From a virus (Duplodnaviria; Heunggongvirae; Uroviricota; Caudoviricetes): DNA of 38,571 bases. Numbering within the stretch: the stretch's first letter is position 1; every line of letters starts with the position of its first letter. The notes under the pieces were generated by a model, which was not told the origin of the DNA, ran no database searches, and saw nothing but the letters and a program-made list of their open reading frames with translations. Shown piece by piece: positions 4,107 to 37,575 of the stretch. The position numbers were made by a program, and so were the translations under genes. Location: IMG/VR virus record IMGVR_UViG_2541047961_000008, one strand, 5' to 3'.

Positions 4107-4428
4107 GAAACCAGAACATGCACACACAAAAAAACCGCTTGCCATGCCGCAATCAGTCAGGTTACATTTCCGCTGCACCTCACAAAACGGGTGCCGGGTT
4201 TCGCAGCCTGCTGACTACACAAGCGCACAACCGCGCCAGCGGTTTTTTTGTGCGTACTGTATTGCCACGTTTTTTTCGCGTCAGAATTATGGCGGGGCGT
4301 ACGGGGCCGACTTCGGTCGGGCCGGGTTCTTGTGTAGCCGGTACTGCGAACCTCGTACGTCTCGCCACCCACAGTTTCGCAGCTCTGGATGGTGAGTTTT
4401 CACAACTTACTACACAAGGGGCCACACC
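4107..4428 (+). other. Structured non-coding segment in the early operon (candidate leader/attenuator RNA or sRNA)
   Basis: No convincing ORF; perfect 15-bp inverted repeat cacaaaaaaaccgct (4125-4139) / agcggtttttttgtg (4238-4252); ~76-nt element 4291-4366 closed by a 13-bp stem with an internal hairpin capped by a UUCG tetraloop (4307-4320). Confidence 0.35.
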
Positions 4429-4659
4429 ATGGCAAACCGCAAACCACACCGCGCTATCGCGGAGCGTCGTCACATCCAGACTGAAATCGACCGCAGACTC
4501 ACCCGCGCTGCACACATCGCCTTTATCATGCAATCCAACACATTGCACAGACTCAACAGCACTATTTCAGCCGACTACTGCGCCGCTGTATTCAGCTATC
4601 TGGCGGAAGACCTCCTGTCTCTTCAGGATCTCATCCAGCAGCAAAACAAACTCCATTAA
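4429..4659 (+). CDS. Hypothetical early protein (76 aa)
   Basis: ORF immediately downstream of the structured element; weak aagggg RBS. Confidence 0.5.
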   Translation: MANRKPHRAIAERRHIQTEIDRRLTRAAHIAFIMQSNTLHRLNSTISADYCAAVFSYLAEDLLSLQDLIQQQNKLH

Positions 4660-4731
4660 TTCCTGTTCCGGGCCTTTCCTGCACCTTGCGGCGGGAGGCC
4701 TTCGCACATCTGTAACAAGAGGATTGCCGCA

Positions 4732-5097
4732 ATGATTCTCGCCAACGACTTTCTTGAATACCTGCTCAACACAGAACGTGATCTTGCCGCTCGCGTGCGT
4801 GATCGTTATGACATGTACCTGAAATCCCTGCCTGTACCGCAGCTCGCTGACGGAAAGATTGTTATTGATGGCCGCTACATGATTGACAGCCATGAGGGAA
4901 ATTACAGGCTTTACCGCATTGAAGGTGGCACCCCGTCCGTTATTGGCATTTACCAGCGCCCATCCTCTGCGATCGTCGATGTGATTGCAGACAGCATCCG
5001 CATCACACATCGCCATGCCGACACAGAAGACACCGTGCTGGAAATTCAGCGGCTGGCTACAGTCTGCCGCGACACCCTGAATGGCATGACGAAGTAA
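4732..5097 (+). CDS. Hypothetical early protein (121 aa)
   Basis: Strong RBS aagagga before the ATG; immediately upstream of replicase A. Confidence 0.6.
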   Translation: MILANDFLEYLLNTERDLAARVRDRYDMYLKSLPVPQLADGKIVIDGRYMIDSHEGNYRLYRIEGGTPSVIGIYQRPSSAIVDVIADSIRITHRHADTEDTVLEIQRLATVCRDTLNGMTK

Positions 5098-5103
5098 ATC
5101 ACT

Positions 5104-7926
5104 ATGACGGCAGAGTACATCAGGGACTGGCAACAACCGCGCCACGCAGTGGGACGTGAAGGAACGGGGATCCCCGTTCCTGAATCCGCGCTTTCCTCCT
5201 GGCTGGATGCCTACCGGGCAGAGAACGAGCGCCGCCAGGAAATGGCTGATGCGGCGTTCTCCGCCACGCCGCTGGGCAACCTGATTAATAAAAGCCTGGA
5301 TGCACAGGAAAAACAGGACAAAACCATCACACTGGCAGGAGACGCCAGAAAACAGGTACGCGGTGCGGTGGATGAAGCCATGGCCTCGCTGCGCCTGCTG
5401 CCGTCCTATCTGCGCGATCCGCTTATTCGCCACCTCTCCTTCCTGCGCAAAAAACAGGAAGCCGATCGCCGGAAAGGCAAAAAGAGCTGGCAGGCTGAAC
5501 GCTACGCGCGCGGAACCCTGCGCAAAATATTCGAACGTCTGGACCGCACCGACCACCGCTGGCTGACACCGGGTTATCGCTCCCTTGCCGGACGCGAACG
5601 CCTGGATGATTTGCTTTACCTGCCGCAGCTCAACAAGCACCAGATACAGACGCTGGCCACCATGACGGCGGCGATGTTCAGCAGCACCTTCGAAAAACTC
5701 TGCGATGGCTTTGGCGCGACTGATGGCGAGCTGACCATGGATGTAACGCTGAAGGCGTATCAGATGCTGGCCCGCATGGCGTTACACCTGCACGCCATGC
5801 CTCCGCATTATGACGCACTGACAACAGACAAAGACCGGAGGAACGAACCGGACACGGAGCTGCTGCCGGGCGCAATCCTTCGCCTGACCTGTGCGGAATG
5901 GTGGAAACGCAAACTGTGGCTGTTACGTTGCGAGTGGCGGGAAGAACAACTCCGCGCCGCCTGTCTGGTTTCCAGAAAAACATCGCCCTATCTGAGCCAG
6001 GACGCGTTAAGCGAGTTTCGCGCACAGCGCGAGAAAACACGCGATTTCCTGAAAAGTTTCATGCTGGAAAACGAAGACGGGTTCACGATTGATCTCGAGA
6101 CGGTGTATTACGCGGGAGTAAGTAACCCGGTTCATCGTAAGGCAGAAATGATGGCCACCATGAAGGGGCTGGAACTTCTGGCCGAAGCCCGTGGCGACAA
6201 AGCGGTGTTTCTGACTGTCACCTGCCCGTCAAAATACCACGCCACAACAGAGAACGGTCATCCGAATCCCAAATGGAACGGGGCCACCATGCGCGACTCC
6301 AGCGATTACCTAGTTAACACGTTTTTTGCGGCGGTCCGCAAGAAACTGAACCGCGACGGTCTGCGCTGGTATGGCATCCGCACGGTGGAGCCTCACCATG
6401 ACGGCACGGTGCACTGGCATATGATGGTCTTTGCACATCCGGACGAGATTGAAACCATCGTGTCCCACGTCTGCGATATTGCCATTCAGGAAGACCGCCA
6501 CGAGCTGGGCGATGACATAACTCCGCGTTTTAAGGCGGAGTACGTCGACGGCTCAAAAGGCACGCCAACCAGCTACATCGCCACCTACATCGGAAAGAAC
6601 CTGGACAGCCGCGCCGTGGATGGTATCGACCCGAAAACGGGCAAGCCACGCGTTGACCACGAAACCGGAAAATCAATGGCCGAGAGCGTGGAGCGCGCCA
6701 TCGGCTGGGCGCGCCTTCACCGGGTCCGCCAGTTCCAGTTCTTTGGTATCCCCTCCCGTCAGGTATGGCGTGAACTCCGCCGCCTTGCCAGCCAGATGGC
6801 ACGCAACCCGGAAGGCCCGCAACGGCTGAAGGATGACGCAATGGATGCGGTACTCGCTGCCGCTGATGCAGGATGTTTTGCCACCTACATAGAGAAACAG
6901 GGCGGCGTACTTGTTCCACGCAAAGACTACCTGATTCGCACCGCCTACGACCTCGCCGATGAGCTGAACGATTACGGCGAACAGAGCGTACAGATTTACG
7001 GGATCTGGTCACCACTCATCGGGGAATCCTCCCGTGTGTGCACGCATCCGGATAACTGGAAGCTGGTAAGACGCAAACCGGAAGCGGAAGACAGCGCCCG
7101 CGAAAATGGTTTTGACCTTCAGGGCGGCCCTGCCGCCCCTTGGACTCGTGGCAATAACTGTCCCCGTGTACAGGAAACAGGCAACAGCGGGACAGAACAG
7201 TCGGAAGAACGGCCAGCACCGTGGCCGCAGCTTCCTGACGGCGTTGAAGTGAACGAATGGATGCGCTCACTGAAACGGCACGAACGCCGGGCGCTGATGC
7301 GTTCGCTTCGTGACAAACAGGCAAAAAACAGCAGTGATGAAATGCAGAGCTGGACACAGAGCCGCAAACAGCAGCGGCCTTTGCCTGATAACCACGAATT
7401 ACTCGCTAAAGAATGGCGGGAGTCTGCTGAATCTCTCGGCCTGCATATCGGTGAACAACAGATGCAGCACCTGTTACGGGGCGGCAGCCTGTACGTTGAC
7501 GGCAGCATCATTGCACCGCAGGGATATGAAATTGTACGTAAACCGGATACCCGCCCGGACAGCCGAATCACGCAGCTCTGGCAACGCCTGAGCCGTAACC
7601 ACGGCGTAAGCAGCACGGAGATCCGCCATAACCCGGTCGCCAGCTATCTGGAACAACTAGGGGCATCAGACCCTGAAGCCGCCGCACGCCTGGCATCCAC
7701 ACTTCAGCAAGACCAGAACACCATGAAAACACCCGTTACCGTACTTTCTGACATGCTGCGCGCCATCCGCGACGCAGAGCACGAACAGAGAATCAGTGAA
7801 ACAACTGAACGCGCCCGCCGCAAAGCAGACCTGCTGCGGGGTGGCCTGACCAGTGGAAACAAAAAACAGACAAAAACGGGATTCACAAATCCCGTAAATG
7901 AGCAAAAAACGTGCCGCGATATATGA
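5104..7926 (+). CDS. A: Rolling-circle replication initiator (P2 gpA-like HUH endonuclease), 940 aa with a long C-terminal extension
   Basis: HUH motif (TVHWHMMVFAH) and active-site tyrosine motif (SYIATYIGKN); follows the early operon as in P2/186; C-terminal ~250 aa is R/Q-rich. Confidence 0.85.
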   Translation: MTAEYIRDWQQPRHAVGREGTGIPVPESALSSWLDAYRAENERRQEMADAAFSATPLGNLINKSLDAQEKQDKTITLAGDARKQVRGAVDEAMASLRLLPSYLRDPLIRHLSFLRKKQEADRRKGKKSWQAERYARGTLRKIFERLDRTDHRWLTPGYRSLAGRERLDDLLYLPQLNKHQIQTLATMTAAMFSSTFEKLCDGFGATDGELTMDVTLKAYQMLARMALHLHAMPPHYDALTTDKDRRNEPDTELLPGAILRLTCAEWWKRKLWLLRCEWREEQLRAACLVSRKTSPYLSQDALSEFRAQREKTRDFLKSFMLENEDGFTIDLETVYYAGVSNPVHRKAEMMATMKGLELLAEARGDKAVFLTVTCPSKYHATTENGHPNPKWNGATMRDSSDYLVNTFFAAVRKKLNRDGLRWYGIRTVEPHHDGTVHWHMMVFAHPDEIETIVSHVCDIAIQEDRHELGDDITPRFKAEYVDGSKGTPTSYIATYIGKNLDSRAVDGIDPKTGKPRVDHETGKSMAESVERAIGWARLHRVRQFQFFGIPSRQVWRELRRLASQMARNPEGPQRLKDDAMDAVLAAADAGCFATYIEKQGGVLVPRKDYLIRTAYDLADELNDYGEQSVQIYGIWSPLIGESSRVCTHPDNWKLVRRKPEAEDSARENGFDLQGGPAAPWTRGNNCPRVQETGNSGTEQSEERPAPWPQLPDGVEVNEWMRSLKRHERRALMRSLRDKQAKNSSDEMQSWTQSRKQQRPLPDNHELLAKEWRESAESLGLHIGEQQMQHLLRGGSLYVDGSIIAPQGYEIVRKPDTRPDSRITQLWQRLSRNHGVSSTEIRHNPVASYLEQLGASDPEAAARLASTLQQDQNTMKTPVTVLSDMLRAIRDAEHEQRISETTERARRKADLLRGGLTSGNKKQTKTGFTNPVNEQKTCRDI

Positions 7927-8002: not shown

Positions 8003-8962
8003 ATGAAAATTTGTATCGACGACGGCTCCACCAACATCAAGCTGGCATGGACTGAGAACGGCGAACGCCGCAACGCCATCAGCCCGAACAGCTTCAAGTC
8101 GGAATGGTCTGCGCCGTTCGGTGGCACGCAGCCCGCGAACTACATGCTTGATGACGTGCGCTATGGTTTTGATCCGGTCAGCGATCGCTTTGTCCAGACG
8201 ACCGACACGCAATACCAGTACAGCGATGTGAATGTCATTGCCATTCATCACGCGCTGGTCAAATCAGGCATCACGCCACAGGCGGTGGATGTGGTTGTCA
8301 CCCTGCCACTGAGCGAGTATTTCGACACAAACGCACAGCCGGACATGGCCAACATCAACCGCAAAAAAGCGAACGTTATGCGCCCGGTGGAGTACCAGAA
8401 CGGCGAGGCATTCACTATCCGTAACGCGCGGGTTATGCCTGAATCCATTCCGGCTGGCTTTAAAGCACTGGCTGACATGAGTCCGTTTGAATCCCTGCTG
8501 ATTGTGGATTTGGGCGGAACCACGCTGGATGTGGCAAAGGTTCAGGGGCAACTGGCAGGTATCAGCCAGGTGTTTTGCGATCCACACGTAGGCGTTTCTC
8601 TGATGGCCGATGCCGTGCTGTCGGTGATGGCCACCAACGGTATGCGCACCAGTCACCACATCGCCAATACCATTATCGAACATCGCCACGATGAAGCCTG
8701 GCTGCGCCAGCACATCCACAATGACGCGCATTACGCCAGCCTGATGGCAGTTATTCGTGAAAAGGAAGAAACACTGAAACAACGCGTGATCCGCGCGCTG
8801 GCGGGTTTTTCGGGTTACGGGCGGGTGATGGTTGTCGGTGGCGGGGCGGAGATTGTGGCACCCGCTATCCGCGAAGCCTGCGGAGTTAATGCGACTTTCA
8901 TCGCGGACGGGGTGCCACAGTTTGCTCTGGTTAATGGGCTGTACGCAATGGACAAGGAGTAA
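8003..8962 (+). CDS. parM: Actin-like segregation ATPase, ParM/StbA family
   Basis: 319 aa; N-terminus KICIDDGSTNIKLAW and internal motifs (YSDVNVIAIHHAL, VMPESIPAGF, LIVDLGGTTLD, VMVVGGGAE, LVNGLY) closely track my recollection of plasmid R1 ParM. Confidence 0.85.
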   Translation: MKICIDDGSTNIKLAWTENGERRNAISPNSFKSEWSAPFGGTQPANYMLDDVRYGFDPVSDRFVQTTDTQYQYSDVNVIAIHHALVKSGITPQAVDVVVTLPLSEYFDTNAQPDMANINRKKANVMRPVEYQNGEAFTIRNARVMPESIPAGFKALADMSPFESLLIVDLGGTTLDVAKVQGQLAGISQVFCDPHVGVSLMADAVLSVMATNGMRTSHHIANTIIEHRHDEAWLRQHIHNDAHYASLMAVIREKEETLKQRVIRALAGFSGYGRVMVVGGGAEIVAPAIREACGVNATFIADGVPQFALVNGLYAMDKE

Positions 8963-8966
8963 ACCA

Positions 8967-9278
8967 ATGACGACACCAACCAGACGGATAAGTTTCTATC
9001 TGAAGCCCGCCGCCGTCAAGAACGAAGGCGAAGCATGCGCCTGGCTGGACAGCCTTACACCAGAAGCCCGCAAAAGCGGCCAACGCGTGGCTTTTCTGGC
9101 CGGGCTGGCACTTCTGAAAATGAATCCGGCAGAGGCTTACCGACTGGCTGCATGGGCTGATGATGAAGCGTTATCAGTGACACAAACCAGAGCAGAACGC
9201 CCTGCGACACCTCCAACGCCAACCACACAGATAACCAGCCAGATGGCCGGGAATATCCGGGCGTTATTTCCCGAATAA
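8967..9278 (+). CDS. parR: ParR/StbB-like centromere-binding adaptor
   Basis: 103 aa directly downstream of parM; RRISFYLKP...LDSLTPEARKSG...AFLAGLAL resembles the R1 ParR N-terminal RHH region as I recall it. Confidence 0.7.
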   Translation: MTTPTRRISFYLKPAAVKNEGEACAWLDSLTPEARKSGQRVAFLAGLALLKMNPAEAYRLAAWADDEALSVTQTRAERPATPPTPTTQITSQMAGNIRALFPE

Positions 9279-9330: not shown

Positions 9331-11463
<2,133 letters not shown>

Positions 11464-33117: not shown

Positions 33118-33664
33118 CGGGGAAGCCATTCTGTTACGCAACATCATCGTCAGCGCCACCATGCAACTACCGGATAAAGATATGTCCGGACAGTCAACCA
33201 GCACCACCAGTGCCCAGCAGGGAAGCAAGGCTAAAGAGCTGCGTGTATCAGGCGTCATTGATTTTAATGATGAAGCTGTTCTGACCCGTATATTTCAGCT
33301 TGCAGAAGCCACAGAAAGCAACGGGGCTAAAAAAACATACCGCATCGCCAACGCTACTGCTAAGGCGATTAATATGCGACAGGGTGTTTTTTCGGGCGGT
33401 ATTGATGCAACGGAACAACAGGGCAAGATGCACTGGCAGGTCACCTTTACTCTCAGGGAAAAATTAAGCGTGCCGGAAAAAGCATCGGCACGCAGTGGCT
33501 CACAGAAAACAATCGCAAAGCAGCAGACACAGAACGGCAGTGAGCAGGCACCGGATAAAGGAATGAATACCCAGGAGACTTTCTGGAAAAATATCAATGA
33601 TGGTATTGGCTCCGGGCTGGACTGGATTGGCATCGGGAGCGTGAAAGAGGAAGGGAAAACATGA
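33089..33664 (+). CDS. Hypothetical tail-associated protein (191 aa)
   Basis: ORF overlapping the upstream gene by 29 nt; sits between the fibre module and the hub-like gene. Confidence 0.4.
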   Translation: MTQMIVLALDGEAILLRNIIVSATMQLPDKDMSGQSTSTTSAQQGSKAKELRVSGVIDFNDEAVLTRIFQLAEATESNGAKKTYRIANATAKAINMRQGVFSGGIDATEQQGKMHWQVTFTLREKLSVPEKASARSGSQKTIAKQQTQNGSEQAPDKGMNTQETFWKNINDGIGSGLDWIGIGSVKEEGKT

Positions 33665-35358
33665 AATTAATCCAACGTTGCATGATTAATGGCGAGCTGG
33701 CGGAAATTGCCGATATCAGCCTTGTCCTTACCCTGAATGCTGCCGGTCGCGGCTTCATTTCTGTTAATAATCTGTCACCGGAAAAAAGCCTTGCCGGCGC
33801 AATGATACAAATTGATCTCGGCCGTAATGGTGAGGCATGGCGCTATTTCTCCGGCTACATTGAGCGCGATCAACCCGCCGAAAATGGCTCACGCCGCCTT
33901 TTTATCCGTGAAGCAGCTGCCGTGCTGGATTTTGATTTCCCCTGCTCCATGCAACATCCAACGTTACGGGATGTACTCGATAATCTGGGTAAACAAAGCG
34001 GCATCGTTTTCATCACGCCAGATGCGGATTACGTCAGCACACCGACACCTTACATCACCCACAGCGGCAGCGGAGCACAACTGCTCAGCCAGCTGGGGCG
34101 AGCATTCAGTATCAGCGATTACGTCTGGCATCCAATGCCGGACGGTTCCGTATTTGTGGGAAGCGCACCGGATTCACGGTTTGCCAGTATTACCATGCCG
34201 GATATTCCGCAACAGTACACACTCGGGCAAAGCGGCGGAAACAGCATCGACATCATGTTTATGGAAACTGTGCGGCCGGGCGTGAACCTTCCGGCCGGGC
34301 GCATTACCCGTGTAGCCCTCAACAACGAGAAAATGACCCTGACATGGGAACGCCTTACCGCCACGGGTAGCCCTGTTTCCAAATCACCATTACGCAGACA
34401 GATGGAAACACAGTTCCCGGAACTGGCCAGCGGCACTCTACATACCCGGCTGGCGCGCGTCATTGCCCCAACGGAATCCGTCACCCTGGGCGATATTGCC
34501 AACAGCTTCCGCCCACGCTACGCCGTCGATGTGCAACTGCTTGATGAGAACGGCAACGATAAAAGCGATACGCCTGTTTATCCGGCAGTACCACTCCCCG
34601 TCCCGATGGCTGGTAGCGAGGCGGGATGTTTTGCCTACCCGCCGGCAGGCACCATCGTGGAAATATCCAACATTGAAGGGCGACCGGATAAACCTGTCAT
34701 CAGGCAAATCTTACCCGCGGGCCATAACCTGCCTGATGTAAAGCCCGGCGAACAACTGCAGCAACAGCGCGCAGAAGTGTTTCAGCGCGTCACGACTGAC
34801 GGAAGCTGGCACAGAGAAACTGACCAGCAAATCAGGGAGCATTCAGCCAGGCGAACCATTAACAGCGATCAGGAAGAACGCACAACAACAACCAGAACAA
34901 CAACAGTCCAGGCAAACGACATAACCAGTGTTCTTGGCACCAGTAAGCTGATGACAGGCCAGACAGAGCACCTTACTACCGGCAATTATGCGATCGCAGC
35001 CGGTGAGCATATCCAGATGGTAGCGCAGGATTTGCTGACTCAACTCAAAGGGGCGATATCCACCATTGAGCATGACCTCACCGAAAACGTGGGAGGCCGC
35101 AGAACATGCAGGGCGGACGGCGGTCTGGAGTTTACCGCCCCGACAGTATTTATTGGTCGCGGTGGCTCGCGGGAAAAGTCCGGGCTTAACCTGCTGACGT
35201 TGCTGATCGATATTCTGGATCTGATTCAATTGCTGGCCACACATACAGCAAACCACACCCATAGCAACACAGGCACGCCAATGAACAGCGGCGAACTTGC
35301 CGCAGATGCCCTGCAGGCGACGAGTCTGCGCGAAAAATACGGCGACATTATCGCCTGA
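33661..35358 (+). CDS. Putative baseplate hub/central spike protein (gpD/gpV-like, possibly a fused hub-spike)
   Basis: 565 aa, last structural gene; C-terminal His-rich motif ATHTANHTHSNTGTP resembles metal-binding spike tips; assignment by size, position and motif. Confidence 0.45.
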   Translation: MKLIQRCMINGELAEIADISLVLTLNAAGRGFISVNNLSPEKSLAGAMIQIDLGRNGEAWRYFSGYIERDQPAENGSRRLFIREAAAVLDFDFPCSMQHPTLRDVLDNLGKQSGIVFITPDADYVSTPTPYITHSGSGAQLLSQLGRAFSISDYVWHPMPDGSVFVGSAPDSRFASITMPDIPQQYTLGQSGGNSIDIMFMETVRPGVNLPAGRITRVALNNEKMTLTWERLTATGSPVSKSPLRRQMETQFPELASGTLHTRLARVIAPTESVTLGDIANSFRPRYAVDVQLLDENGNDKSDTPVYPAVPLPVPMAGSEAGCFAYPPAGTIVEISNIEGRPDKPVIRQILPAGHNLPDVKPGEQLQQQRAEVFQRVTTDGSWHRETDQQIREHSARRTINSDQEERTTTTRTTTVQANDITSVLGTSKLMTGQTEHLTTGNYAIAAGEHIQMVAQDLLTQLKGAISTIEHDLTENVGGRRTCRADGGLEFTAPTVFIGRGGSREKSGLNLLTLLIDILDLIQLLATHTANHTHSNTGTPMNSGELAADALQATSLREKYGDIIA

Positions 35359-35397
35359 ACACCAGACATAAAAGCCACATAAACGCCCCATCACACA

Positions 35398-35424
35398 ACG
35401 CACGGTCCCGGCCGTGCGTTTTCC
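35398..35424 (+). terminator. Rho-independent terminator of the late tail operon
   Basis: acgcacgg-tcccgg-ccgtgcgt followed by TTTT, 40 bp after the stop of the 565-aa gene. Confidence 0.7.
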
Positions 35425-36185
35425 TATCCACCACCTGATTAATGCGTTCTGCGTGCCATTCTGGCGCTGTATGCGCGCACCGCGTAAACGGTGTGACGTA
35501 AAGCGTGAGGTGACGTAAACCGCGCTACCCCCTCCAACCCGCGGGTTTTGTGTCGAAACAGTTTTTCAGTTTTCTGCCGTGCAAAAATGACCGCCAGCCC
35601 GCGCAGTAACTGAGGGAAAAGCGAAGATCTGAAATTTCACTCATGGAAATTTTTTGCAGTTTTCAGCGGGTTTTTTACGATCGCACAAATGGCAGGAGCA
35701 ATAAAACCGCATGATATTAAACGAGTTTTCATACTTTACGTGAGACGAGAAACGATCACGAAAGGATCGCATCAAAAAATCGTCAAACAACGAAGCCAGA
35801 CGCGGCGCGGCCTGCGTAAAATTAAGAGTCAAAATTAAACTGAAAAAAGGATCAATACAGCGCATCGATCGCACATGACGATCTACGCAGCAACAGGACA
35901 AAAAAACCGGCGCGAACGCCGGCGGAAGCATGTATCAAATGCGTGACTGAATAATGTCTGCGGTCGGGAATTTTATATCAAAAGGCTGACAGGCCTCAAC
36001 GGATTGAAACAAGGGAAAAAACCAGGCTAGAATTCGCGCGGGTGCCTTTCGGCTGATGGCTGGAGGGAATACCTGAAGGCCGGATGTGGAAAGGCCCCGG
36101 AAAACATTTTTGTTTAACCGAGGCCCTAACCATCTACCCTAGACAAGTGATAGGTTAGCGCCTCCCTAAAAAAGGAGCAAGCGCT

Positions 36186-36326
36186 ATGTCGCAAAAATCG
36201 CTTACGGCCATTACGTTCTGCGTAACGGCAATCCTCATCATCTGGATGCTGCACGGTTCGCTGTGTGAAATACGGATGAGCTTCTGGGGAGCGGAGTTTG
36301 CGGCGTTCTTACAGTGTAAGCAGTAA
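36186..36326 (+). CDS. hok: Hok/Gef-family type I toxin (46 aa)
   Basis: MSQKSLTAITFCVTAILIIWMLHGSLCEIRMSFWGAEFAAFLQCKQ: one TM helix plus the SLCEIR...AAF motif of Hok-family toxins; RBS aaggag. Confidence 0.6.
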   Translation: MSQKSLTAITFCVTAILIIWMLHGSLCEIRMSFWGAEFAAFLQCKQ

Positions 36327-36410
36327 GGAAACCGCGACGGGGGAGCAATCCCCCGTCAATCGGTTGTCAGGGCAAGACTGATAAGGCACCCTATACACAT
36401 CCCAAAGCAG

Positions 36411-36446
36411 AAACCCGCAGCGTAAAAACTGCGGGTTTTCTTTTTG
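36411..36446 (+). terminator. Rho-independent terminator downstream of the hok-like gene
   Basis: aacccgcag-cgtaaaaa-ctgcgggtt followed by ttctttttgg; a second hairpin (ccctcac-aag-tgaggg) follows. Confidence 0.65.
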
Positions 36447-36515
36447 GCGCCCTCACAAGTGAGGGTGCCAGTTAAAGATTACAATAATACTAATTCAGTC
36501 TGTCTATTTATTTTG

Positions 36516-37256
36516 TTAATCTTCGATTTTCTTTAAAGGAAAAATATCTGGAGTAAATACATCCTTAACAGGAATATTTAGCTGCTTACGAATAAACTGT
36601 TTCAATTTCTTTTCTTCCTTTAAATCCAAAATCCCATCATTACCAGCAAACTTTTTCTTATACTCATTCCACAAGGATATAGATTGAAGTTGCGATTTCG
36701 TTAATATTACGTCACTAGACAATATAGTCCATTTTTTATTATCACATACAACACCAGTTCCACAACCATCCGGAGAATAATCAACCATTGCCAACCGATA
36801 ACTACCTTCCGAATTTTCCGTAGGTAGAAGCAACACAGATACAAAGTCAGCTCTCTTCTCTTTCTGCCACTCAATAGCCGCGGCCATTGCTGTCGAAGCT
36901 CTTGATTCTAAATCTTGAGACTCAGGAGACACTATAAAAACCTTAAATCTCTTTCGCCCCGCATAACTTATGTCATCATAACGCACAAAAGAATACGGTT
37001 TCGCCTTGTCTACTCCAGATAAAGCAAGTTCATCGCTAATATGCTCCTTCGATGGAATATTATTTACCTGTGAATCGGATTCGTTTCCGGATAATTGCCA
37101 AATAACCCAAAACACAACGAAGAACATTACAACCAACAATAAACACCCTCTCCTTTCTTTTTTTTGCGTTGCCCAAAAAGAAGTTCCACACGTCGGACAC
37201 ACTGATTCCTTCGTAGAATTTTTAGACTGACATTTTGTACAAACCCAATGAAGCAT
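36516..37256 (-). CDS. Hypothetical zinc-ribbon membrane protein in an AT-rich island (246 aa)
   Basis: N-terminal CxxC...CxxC (CTKCQSKNSTKESVCPTCG), one TM helix (LLLVVMFFVVFWVIWQL), ~190-aa C-terminal domain; visibly AT-rich compared with flanking phage genes; RBS ggag. Confidence 0.55.
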   Translation of the reverse strand: MLHWVCTKCQSKNSTKESVCPTCGTSFWATQKKERRGCLLLVVMFFVVFWVIWQLSGNESDSQVNNIPSKEHISDELALSGVDKAKPYSFVRYDDISYAGRKRFKVFIVSPESQDLESRASTAMAAAIEWQKEKRADFVSVLLLPTENSEGSYRLAMVDYSPDGCGTGVVCDNKKWTILSSDVILTKSQLQSISLWNEYKKKFAGNDGILDLKEEKKLKQFIRKQLNIPVKDVFTPDIFPLKKIED

Positions 37257-37390
37257 GAATAATTCTCCATGATGTCAAAGATAAAACTAACAACCACAAA
37301 AAGGCACACAAATTTTATGGTTTGAAAAGAGGGCAAAGCAAGAATTATAAAGCCCGCATATTTTACGGGCTTTGACTATATCTCGAAAAT

Positions 37391-37412
37391 GTGGTCACTA
37401 CGTGGACATACG
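37391..37412. repeat. Imperfect copy of the left-end GTGGACAC-type repeat; candidate right att region
   Basis: gtggtcactacgtggacatacg versus gtggacactgcgtggacacttacg at 11-34. Confidence 0.35.
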
Positions 37413-37575
37413 TTGATACAAATCCTTTTATATCAATGGATTAATTCATCATCTTTTTCATCAACAAGGATTTTCACGTTTGTGTTACCTGTATGAGACG
37501 AGAGTTAATCAGACAAGTGTGCCATAATCTCGCGGCCAGGCATACTTGCGAAGATTTCAGGTATAAGGATACGTA

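Follow-up and report, generated by a model that had tools for sequence, protein, structure and literature searches.

Type I toxin-antitoxin (TA) loci of the hok/sok type are described from plasmid R1, for which plasmid-type post-segregational killing is established, and from the chromosome of Escherichia coli K-12 (hokA, hokB/sokB and hokC/sokC). Membrane-anchored superinfection-exclusion proteins of prophages are likewise established, among them P22 SieA, HK97 gp15, T4 Imm and TP-J34 Ltp; as a class, such proteins are small, non-essential, prophage-expressed and envelope-located, and they are encoded near the immunity or att region. Here we analysed the right end of an E. coli prophage contained in a viral sequence of 38,571 nucleotides (IMG/VR record IMGVR_UViG_2541047961_000008; this whole stretch is called the window, and coordinates refer to it unless another locus is named). 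We consider it probable that the last ~2 kb of this prophage, which is of the P2 family and integrated in the 5′ end of the host gene pdxB, are an accessory (moron) region close to att, and that they comprise two independent modules: a hok/Sok TA system and a swappable cargo gene encoding a protein with a DUF4875 domain. An initial annotation, made from the sequence alone, had described the region as non-structural right-arm cargo behind the tail terminator, with iteron-like repeats, a Hok-family toxin gene, a convergent AT-rich gene and a right-end repeat. All of these elements were found, and their positions agreed with those given there exactly or to a few bases.

Judged by its sequence, the segment 36004-36445 is a complete type I TA module of the hok/Sok type that lacks a mok frame. 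The toxin gene (36186-36326, plus strand) encodes a protein of 46 amino acids (MSQKSLTAITFCVTAILIIWMLHGSLCEIRMSFWGAEFAAFLQCKQ), whose residues 7-44 match Pfam PF01848 with 29.9 bits at a cut-off of 22, which bears out its placement in the Hok family. It also matches phrog_251 (E 1e-22), and near-identical copies carry the label “Hok/Gef family protein” in RefSeq. In common with the toxins of R1 and K-12, it is small and has an N-terminal transmembrane (TM) segment and the SLCEIR...AAFL motif, but it is shorter (46 vs 49-52 amino acids). The nearest K-12 paralogue is HokA with 20 of 46 identical residues; by sequence, the protein is a member of a divergent Hok subfamily and not HokA itself.

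The organization of the transcript resembles that of the R1 and K-12 loci as well, with a long leader, a folded mRNA closed by pairing of a 5′ tac with a 3′ fbi element, and a Rho-independent terminator. A good σ70 promoter matching the consensus in 10 of 12 positions (TTGAAA-18-TAGAAT, 36004-36033, plus strand) precedes a predicted full-length hok mRNA at 36040-36445 (plus strand). Its tac element (36040-36048, GGGTGCCTT) is complementary to fbi (36383-36391, AAGGCACCC) in nine out of nine positions over a distance of 334 nt, and an alternative 5′ partner for this pairing is present at 36089-36098. The minimum free energy fold of a 408-nt hok RNA closes the 5′ on the 3′ end (–176.9 kcal/mol, z –7.9), and this end-paired fold is the tac/fbi architecture of hok mRNAs. 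The downstream hairpins and terminator, which had been noticed from the start, lie at 36336-36357 and 36410-36439. The latter is the plus-strand half of a convergent terminator region (36410-36470), in which a minus-strand hairpin at 36445-36470 would terminate transcription of the DUF4875 gene (z –3.6 and –4.8, respectively).

For comparison, we collected 69 unique related modules from viral contigs, with a median identity to the window of 82%. Throughout this set, the –10 position of the hok promoter is kept as TAGAAT, TAGATT or TAAATT. Pairing of the 7-bp tac/fbi core (GGGTGCC/GGCACCC) is preserved in 67 modules, four times via G-U wobbles, and the hok reading frame is open at 44 to 48 amino acids in 68 of them (exactly 46 in 65). 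Between six modules from different phages, homology spans exactly the stretch from the transcriptional start site to fbi, with divergence outside. Unlike K-12 hokA and hokC, the locus is free of disruption by an insertion sequence (IS).

The initial annotation had also pointed to a Sok-like antisense RNA as something to be identified. By homology to K-12 SokB, a putative RNA of this kind was located at ~36144-36086, and its predicted gene (36086-36180, minus strand) could be placed by means of the annotated K-12 genes sokB and sokC. Only the alignment to these two genes revealed the promoter, which a strict promoter scan had missed: a –35 element TTGCTC (36180-36175), a 17-nt spacer and a –10 element TAACCT (36157-36152), with a start site at about G36144. 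In K-12, the –35 element of sokB/sokC overlaps the Shine-Dalgarno sequence of hok, and the same overlap of Sok promoter and hok ribosome-binding site is laid out on the minus strand of the window. The predicted start lies somewhat closer to the hok AUG than in K-12 (~42 nt upstream vs 48-49 nt for annotated sokB/sokC). The RNA of ~58 nt would start with a 5′ tail of 19 nt, continue with the stem-loop GGCCUCGGUUAAACAAAAAUGUUUUCCGGGGCC (GGCCUCGGUU...CCGGGGCC) and UUU, and end at about 36086. In the alignment, this stem-loop closely resembles that of SokB (GGCCUCGGUUGAUAGAAAUAUCGGUCGGGGCC), with a nearly identical GC-rich base. Among the 69 modules the –10 element is invariant in 68, the spacer occurs in 15 variants, and pairing of the hairpin (fold z –3.8) is kept in at least 41 of 42 variants via G-C/G-U and A-U/U-G changes.

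A further departure from the R1 and K-12 loci concerns mok. At the homologous position the window carries no mok frame but only an upstream open reading frame (ORF) of variable length, and the Hok subfamily therefore appears to deviate from the canonical mok-coupled mechanism. In the window, this upstream ORF has 24 codons (MWKGPGKHFCLTEALTIYPRQVIG, 36084-36158, plus strand), an SD-like GAAGG in front of its ATG, and ends 27 nt before hok. Of the 69 modules, 68 retain its ATG; the length of the frame ranges between 6 and 79 codons, and an overlap with hok exists in some modules only. We rejected it as a mok gene for this variability in length (6-79 codons); it is possible that, lying inside the Sok target, it functionally stands in for mok.

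By homology to R1 and K-12 hok/sok, the module could work as follows. The constitutive promoter would produce an mRNA of ~405 nt that is translationally silent because of the tac-fbi pairing, until slow trimming of its 3′ end frees the 5′ end for refolding. A short, unstable Sok-like RNA, transcribed from the promoter that overlaps the Shine-Dalgarno region of hok, would pair with the leader and prevent synthesis of Hok; the short upstream ORF within the Sok target may here take the place of the mok frame. Once Sok is no longer replenished, the 46-amino-acid toxin would insert into the inner membrane and kill or arrest the cell. The trigger could be that the element is lost, that an infecting phage shuts off transcription, or that the prophage is induced. 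The precedents for hok loci comprise post-segregational killing, abortive infection and a contribution to lysis upon induction, any of which may apply here.

A phage-beneficial role has been tested for another prophage-borne type I TA system of this kind, hokW-sokW of the Stx2 prophage Sp5: its toxin is active and neutralized by Sok, and upon induction the system speeds lysis and doubles phage release (Takada et al. 2021, PMC8621323). HokW, a 51-amino-acid HokC/Gef-like peptide (MKQQKAM...), belongs to a different subfamily than the toxin of the window. We had considered an 81% match in Sp5/VT2-Sakai as hokW-sokW, but the primers used in that paper identify HokW as MKQQKAM..., and the match represents a second hok-like locus. 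This module, located beside lom in Stx phages such as Sp5 and 933W (L007, AP000363.1 44527-44906), is 81% identical to the hok module of the window and encodes a Hok of 46 amino acids. It is unannotated or “hypothetical” in older records and distinct from the hokW-sokW system that was studied.

The second module is the gene at 36516-37256 on the minus strand, convergent to hok, for a protein of 246 amino acids. It is AT-rich (GC content 0.372 vs 0.514 for the window), and the predicted layout of its product agrees with the zinc ribbon, single hydrophobic helix and globular domain originally read from the sequence: a cytoplasmic C4 zinc ribbon (CxxC...CxxC) is followed by a TM helix at residues ~35-55, a linker and a periplasmic DUF4875 domain. 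The latter was recognized at residues 84-237 with a score above the gathering threshold (PF16175, E 7e-35), in agreement with RefSeq, which already annotates the gene as DUF4875. The zinc-ribbon pattern C6-x2-C9...C20-x2-C23 (residues 3-26) is kept in all seven E. coli alleles, and AlphaFold2 models this part with a predicted local distance difference test score (pLDDT) of 81-87; the Pfam scores for Zn_Ribbon_1 and DZR (17.5-18 bits) stay under their cut-offs of 25-27. With an alignment of 83 sequences, the model reaches a pLDDT of 88 and shows a small ribbon at the N-terminus and a single helix (35-55), which a disordered linker connects to an alpha/beta domain; we used this model, the single-sequence run having given a pLDDT of 54. 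The DUF4875 fold was recognized, as the initial annotation had suggested to attempt by structure prediction, and its only match is PDB 4lg3 (DESPIG_00776 of Desulfovibrio piger), an uncharacterized structural-genomics entry. Compared with 4lg3, the window protein has the cytoplasmic zinc ribbon and the TM anchor in addition.

Seven lysine or arginine residues precede the helix, whereas one K/R and four D/E follow it, and this positive-inside bias predicts an N-in/C-out topology. Cys165 and Cys171 co-vary among 83 homologues, with both present in 25, both absent in 57 and the pair split in one, and the domain probably contains a disulfide. An N-terminal hydrophobic segment or a lipobox is found in 77 of the 83. 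Because of the charge bias, the co-varying cysteine pair and these N-terminal segments, the DUF4875 domain is predicted to be extracytoplasmic. All seven E. coli alleles are intact, with a ratio of non-synonymous to synonymous substitutions (dN/dS) of 0.13-0.34 at dS up to 0.29; the gene is under purifying selection.

Both modules lie behind the structural genes of the prophage. The window comprises nearly an entire P2-family E. coli prophage with integrase, C-type repressor, Cox, the replication gene GPA (5104-7926), a P2-type head module and ogr; for prophage typing we used STEC719 (L006) as annotated relative. The last structural gene (33661-35358, plus strand) encodes a baseplate/Vgr-like protein of 565 amino acids (phrog_2258 “baseplate protein”, E 5e-233) with weak similarity to Phage_base_V/VgrG, and forms the left border of the cargo region. 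It is followed by the intrinsic terminator of the late (tail) operon (35397-35420, plus strand), a perfect 9-bp inverted repeat and TTTT (–16.1 kcal/mol, z –4.5), and from there ~2 kb of non-structural DNA extend up to attR in pdxB. The 23-kb structural module (12000-35400) has almost no megablast match, except for tail-fibre fragments, among 50,697 deposited phage genomes, and the lineage is therefore poorly described. Since 41 complete E. coli genomes contain a 630-bp stretch that is conserved in this lineage, its sequence distribution marks it as a common but undescribed type of prophage.

At its right end, the prophage adjoins flk, and the 20-bp att core (AAAATCCTTGTTGATGAAAA, 37455-37474) lies inside the first codons of pdxB. 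An alignment of attR with K-12 attB and attL of STEC719 defined an orphaned 5′ stub of the host gene (37434-37478, minus strand) consisting of GTG and 13 further codons (MKILVDEKDDELIH, then a stop). The point of integration is inside pdxB, immediately 3′ of the GTG start, and attR retains the pdxB promoter together with this 14-codon stub. At attL of STEC719 (L006 35552-35640), the phage supplies AAGGAG and, after 7 nt, an in-frame TTG, from which PdxB would regain an N-terminus with the sequence MSETEKGL; the start assigned to this PdxB by PGAP is Met9, giving 370 amino acids vs 378 for the native protein. The right-end repeat noted earlier corresponds to two TGWCCAC repeats, 11 bp apart, in the P′ arm (37391-37408, minus strand), with a matching pair at 11-28 inside the end of int. 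In STEC719 such pairs occur at both prophage ends, and they are probably arm-type sites of the integrase. Between the pdxB promoter and stub on one side and the DUF4875 gene on the other, a minus-strand hairpin (37349-37373; –14.7 kcal/mol, z –5.2) with a weak T-tract (UUUAUAAUU) likely insulates the prophage from host read-through.

A variable cargo slot, which always starts with the hok module, extends from the end of the late operon, or from ogr, to attR. In 63 loci with enough downstream sequence, we found at least six different cargo sets behind this module, or none. Sister prophages retain the 630-bp stretch and hok and have other genes in the slot, in one case a zinc-ribbon protein with two membrane segments (ZnR-TM2), Com and a methyltransferase. 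In a genuine P2-like prophage that likewise occupies this site in pdxB, we found ogr, an identical Hok, a zinc-ribbon membrane protein of 110 amino acids (ZnR-110 aa) and two VasI/TagO-like proteins. An N-terminal C4 zinc ribbon combined with membrane segments recurs in three of these cargo sets, namely ZnR-110 aa (L002 5477-5809), ZnR-TM2 (L004 5065-5361) and the ZnR-TM-DUF4875 protein of the window (36516-37256), and seems to be an architecture that accessory genes of prophages use repeatedly.

Among 5,426 complete E. coli genomes, only 7 have the DUF4875 gene itself. It is missing where the pdxB-flk locus is free of a prophage, and sister prophages have other cargo in its place. The proposal of horizontal acquisition is borne out by this distribution, and the counter-proposal named along with it, a piece of conserved core host DNA in prophage-free strains, was examined and did not hold. 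As the cargo differs between sister prophages and, in distantly related temperate phages, DUF4875 genes adjoin those for repressors or integrases, the sequence comparisons provide good support for the DUF4875 gene as horizontally acquired moron cargo. A variable slot with different genes in different relatives is also known from the P2 morons old, tin and fun(Z) and from the defence hotspots of P2 and P4. The described P2 hotspot adjoins cos (Rousset et al. 2022, PMC9122126), in contrast to the slot of the window, which reaches from the late operon end or ogr up to attR. Neither hok nor a hok-to-attR slot is mentioned in the papers on the P2 hotspots.

Outside E. coli, DUF4875 forms a family of ~300 representatives at 50% clustering, with the ZnR-TM architecture in 15 of 83 sampled members. 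Homologue searches for the 246-amino-acid protein returned only four and, with a profile, seven close clusters, and a genome scan gave four loci. A CI-type repressor adjoins the DUF4875 gene in four of seven distant loci. In a Pseudoalteromonas prophage, the gene lies beside such a repressor and between an AbiC-like and a TIR gene; in a proteobacterial metagenome-assembled genome (MAG), it comes directly 3′ of a CI repressor gene in the same orientation. It also lies beside a CI-type repressor in two P2-like viral contigs of marine origin, in one of them between repressor and integrase. In Aeromonas phage LPM4 (Peduoviridae), a ZnR-DUF4875 gene with the architecture of the window protein is located between repressor and integrase, all on one strand, and in Vibrio VHML-like phages the DUF4875 gene follows the last tail gene. 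On the circular map of the window phage, the gene adjoins attP and int as well. This repeated placement in lysogeny or att-proximal regions supports, at the level of gene order, an accessory role with expression from the prophage. The row of AbiC-like, DUF4875 and TIR-domain genes in Pseudoalteromonas sp. RW-H-Ap-1 (L136 4540-7361) is a candidate for a compact defence island.

The product of the cargo gene would be anchored in the inner membrane, with its small zinc ribbon in the cytoplasm and its DUF4875 domain, which would contain a disulfide, in the periplasm; most likely it is expressed from the prophage and acts at the cell envelope. DUF4875 genes occupy the genomic positions in which SieA, gp15, Imm and Ltp are encoded, and the predicted envelope location of the window protein agrees with theirs. 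Superinfection exclusion, or another defence at the level of the envelope, is our best single guess for its role and the most economical one, and we offer it tentatively. The initial annotation had named an exclusion or abortive-infection factor as a possibility; such a role would fit our results, but they do not support the label as such. To our knowledge, none of these four exclusion proteins has a zinc ribbon, unlike the window protein, and we know of no exclusion phenotype for any DUF4875 protein.

It is also possible, in an equally tentative sense, that the DUF4875 protein is a lysogenic-conversion factor, which alters envelope physiology of the host (stress tolerance, adhesion, or interbacterial competition and immunity) and has no anti-phage function. 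A membrane anchor and a periplasm-facing domain would suit such a factor. The VasI/TagO-like periplasmic proteins in the slot of a sister prophage, which are related to accessories of type VI secretion systems, point in the same direction, as do fusions of DUF4875 with Sel1 repeats or with bacterial PH domains and the occurrence of family members in non-phage chromosomal loci. However, AbiC-like and TIR genes, which flank the Pseudoalteromonas gene, are typical neighbours in defence loci, and no virulence or competition gene is linked to DUF4875 in E. coli.

Several observations weigh against the interpretation of the region as a hok/Sok module next to an envelope-defence cargo. On the side of the cargo gene, no structural neighbour of known function was found for the DUF4875 domain, whose fold matches only the uncharacterized entry 4lg3; PADLOC-DB v2 returned no match at E ≤ 1 for the 246-amino-acid protein, for Hok or for a 96-amino-acid ORF of the region; a literature search found no paper mentioning DUF4875; a promoter scan found no clear σ70 promoter for the gene; and in two MAG loci (L138/L139) DUF4875 occurs in an ordinary non-phage chromosomal context. 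On the side of the toxin, Hok scores below the NCBIfam cut-offs (NF007290/NF007279; 34 bits vs 89 and 21.6 bits vs 73). The leader matches the Rfam model sok (RF01794) over its full length with 47.2 bits (E 7e-9), under the gathering score of 59; a scan of the 2-kb region at gathering scores gave nothing, and one by E-value only this sub-threshold sok leader. The Sok –10 element TAACCT is weak, and its conservation could reflect a hairpin of the hok mRNA on the opposite strand; because the bases of the Sok region also belong to such hok-mRNA structures, their conservation does not prove the Sok gene independently. The module lacks a start codon where mokB and mokC have their ATG, no mok was found in any frame, and translational control may therefore differ from the canonical mok mechanism.

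Upstream of hok lies the conserved stretch already mentioned (35400-36030, no strand assigned). It is found with 92-95% identity in 41 of 5,426 complete E. coli genomes, annotated in none, and is situated between the baseplate gene and hok in the loci inspected (L001, L003 and L004). It has no counterpart among deposited phages (INPHARED), no Rfam match and no ORF that is conserved across eight relatives: candidate genes of 96, 49, 39 and 34 amino acids were rejected, being broken or startless in relatives, and the sole frame to survive in all eight, with 31 codons, shows non-conservative changes. Its segment 35480-35640 is nearly invariant among relatives. This segment includes three RCGTAAA repeats on the plus strand (35482-35488, 35496-35502 and 35513-35519), which a motif scan recovered where three acgtaaa iterons had been reported. 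The last two lie within exact copies of the 10-mer GTGACGTAAA (35493-35502 and 35510-35519, 17 bp apart), the sole exact copies in the window and both invariant in the eight relatives. Additional RCGTAAA copies at 35735-35741 (minus strand) and 35814-35820 bring 5 of the 21 matches in the window into 339 bp (Poisson P ~1.5e-6, calculated post hoc). While the repeats as such are real, the label “iteron” is not justified, because the copies are irregularly spaced (14 and 17 bp) and no more than two of them exact, and because GPA and parMR are distant, with no rep or par gene within ~26 kb of the repeats. We also compared the GTGACGTAAA repeats with DnaA boxes, Int arm sites, the CpxR site (GTAAA-N5-GTAAA) and the Ogr box (TGT-N12-ACA), and discarded each for a misfit in spacing or sequence.

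The GTGACGTAAA repeats and the 630-bp stretch might instead form a cis-acting site, such as a partition centromere for ParMR, a secondary origin, or a regulator array for hok and the cargo gene. The local enrichment of the repeats, their invariance in relatives, the conservation of the stretch without a conserved ORF, and the ParM and ParR-like proteins encoded by the phage would all be in line with this idea. We nevertheless regard it as unlikely: the two exact copies and irregular spacing do not form a regular array, the stretch lies 26 kb from parMR, whereas parC is normally found just upstream of parM, no replication gene adjoins it, and no similar sequence was found among sequenced phages. 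A candidate small transcript at 35897-35999 (minus strand) was noted in the same stretch with low confidence, based on a promoter-like TTGAGG-18-TAAAAT (35999-35970) and a terminator hairpin (35923-35906) followed by seven T residues. This RNA would be ~65 nt long and divergent from the hok promoter. Terminator and body are kept in relatives, the fold is unexceptional (z –1.75), and there is no Rfam match.

A further explanation for the DUF4875 gene is a service to the phage life cycle, be it in lysis timing, as an accessory of injection or assembly, or as a transmembrane signal transducer of the anti-σ type. The ZnR-TM-periplasmic layout does resemble one-pass signalling proteins, and in the Vibrio VHML-like phages the gene is directly 3′ of the tail genes. 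The gene is dispensable for the lineage, however, as only 7 E. coli genomes have it compared with 41 that have the 630-bp stretch; it is not part of the lysis cassette, converges with the late operon and has a foreign base composition, and its zinc ribbon is not of the zf-HC2 anti-σ type, which makes this explanation distinctly improbable. Finally, it is very hard to believe that the hok locus has decayed to a non-functional remnant, as most hok loci on the K-12 chromosome have, and that the 246-codon ORF is a silenced, functionless foreign gene: the missing mok frame, the NCBIfam and Rfam scores under threshold and the common silencing of AT-rich foreign genes could be taken this way, but Hok stays open (44-48 amino acids) in 68 of 69 divergent modules, with promoter, tac/fbi, Sok promoter and hairpin all kept, no IS disrupts the locus, in contrast to K-12 hokA and hokC, and the DUF4875 alleles are all intact, with dN/dS values of 0.13-0.34 at dS up to 0.29.

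Three additional features of the prophage were recorded outside the cargo region. At 8003-9278, this integrase-bearing P2-family prophage encodes a ParM protein (PF06406 and PF21523) and a ParR-like Plasmid_stab_B protein. With parMR and hok/Sok, both classical stability systems of plasmid R1 are present in one prophage, which could point to an episomal phase, or to selection for inheriting the element stably. Just 3′ of the ParR-like gene, an IS21-family element (9595-11396) with an IstA-like rve transposase and an IstB ATPase has inserted that is absent in STEC719. At 4175-4372, where an Ash-family gene (4118-4735) starts, two adjoining Rfam matches at gathering level, to isrK (64 bits) and C4 antisense RNA (83 bits), overlap its first part; the site would be an antisense immunity element of the P1/P7 type inside a P2-family prophage.

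Most of what we describe is known biology, as the hok locus and DUF4875 are already annotated in RefSeq. The hok/Sok part adds little beyond documenting a widespread prophage Hok subfamily, with toxins of 46 amino acids and no mok, for which the Sok gene can now be placed; as an experiment of nature, this subfamily may show if mok can be replaced by a short ORF in the leader. DUF4875 has a solved structure, and it is found repeatedly in positions where temperate phages keep exclusion or defence genes. With considerable doubt, we suggest that ZnR-anchored, periplasm-facing DUF4875 proteins could be a new family of single-gene envelope exclusion or defence systems, which are encoded in lysogeny or att-proximal regions of temperate phages from several gammaproteobacterial genera, that the ZnR-TM2 and ZnR-110 aa proteins perhaps belong to the same class, and that the hok-to-attR slot could be an undescribed defence hotspot of the P2 family. 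If the exclusion role is true, the hok-to-attR slot of P2-family prophages could be a further place for mining defence genes.

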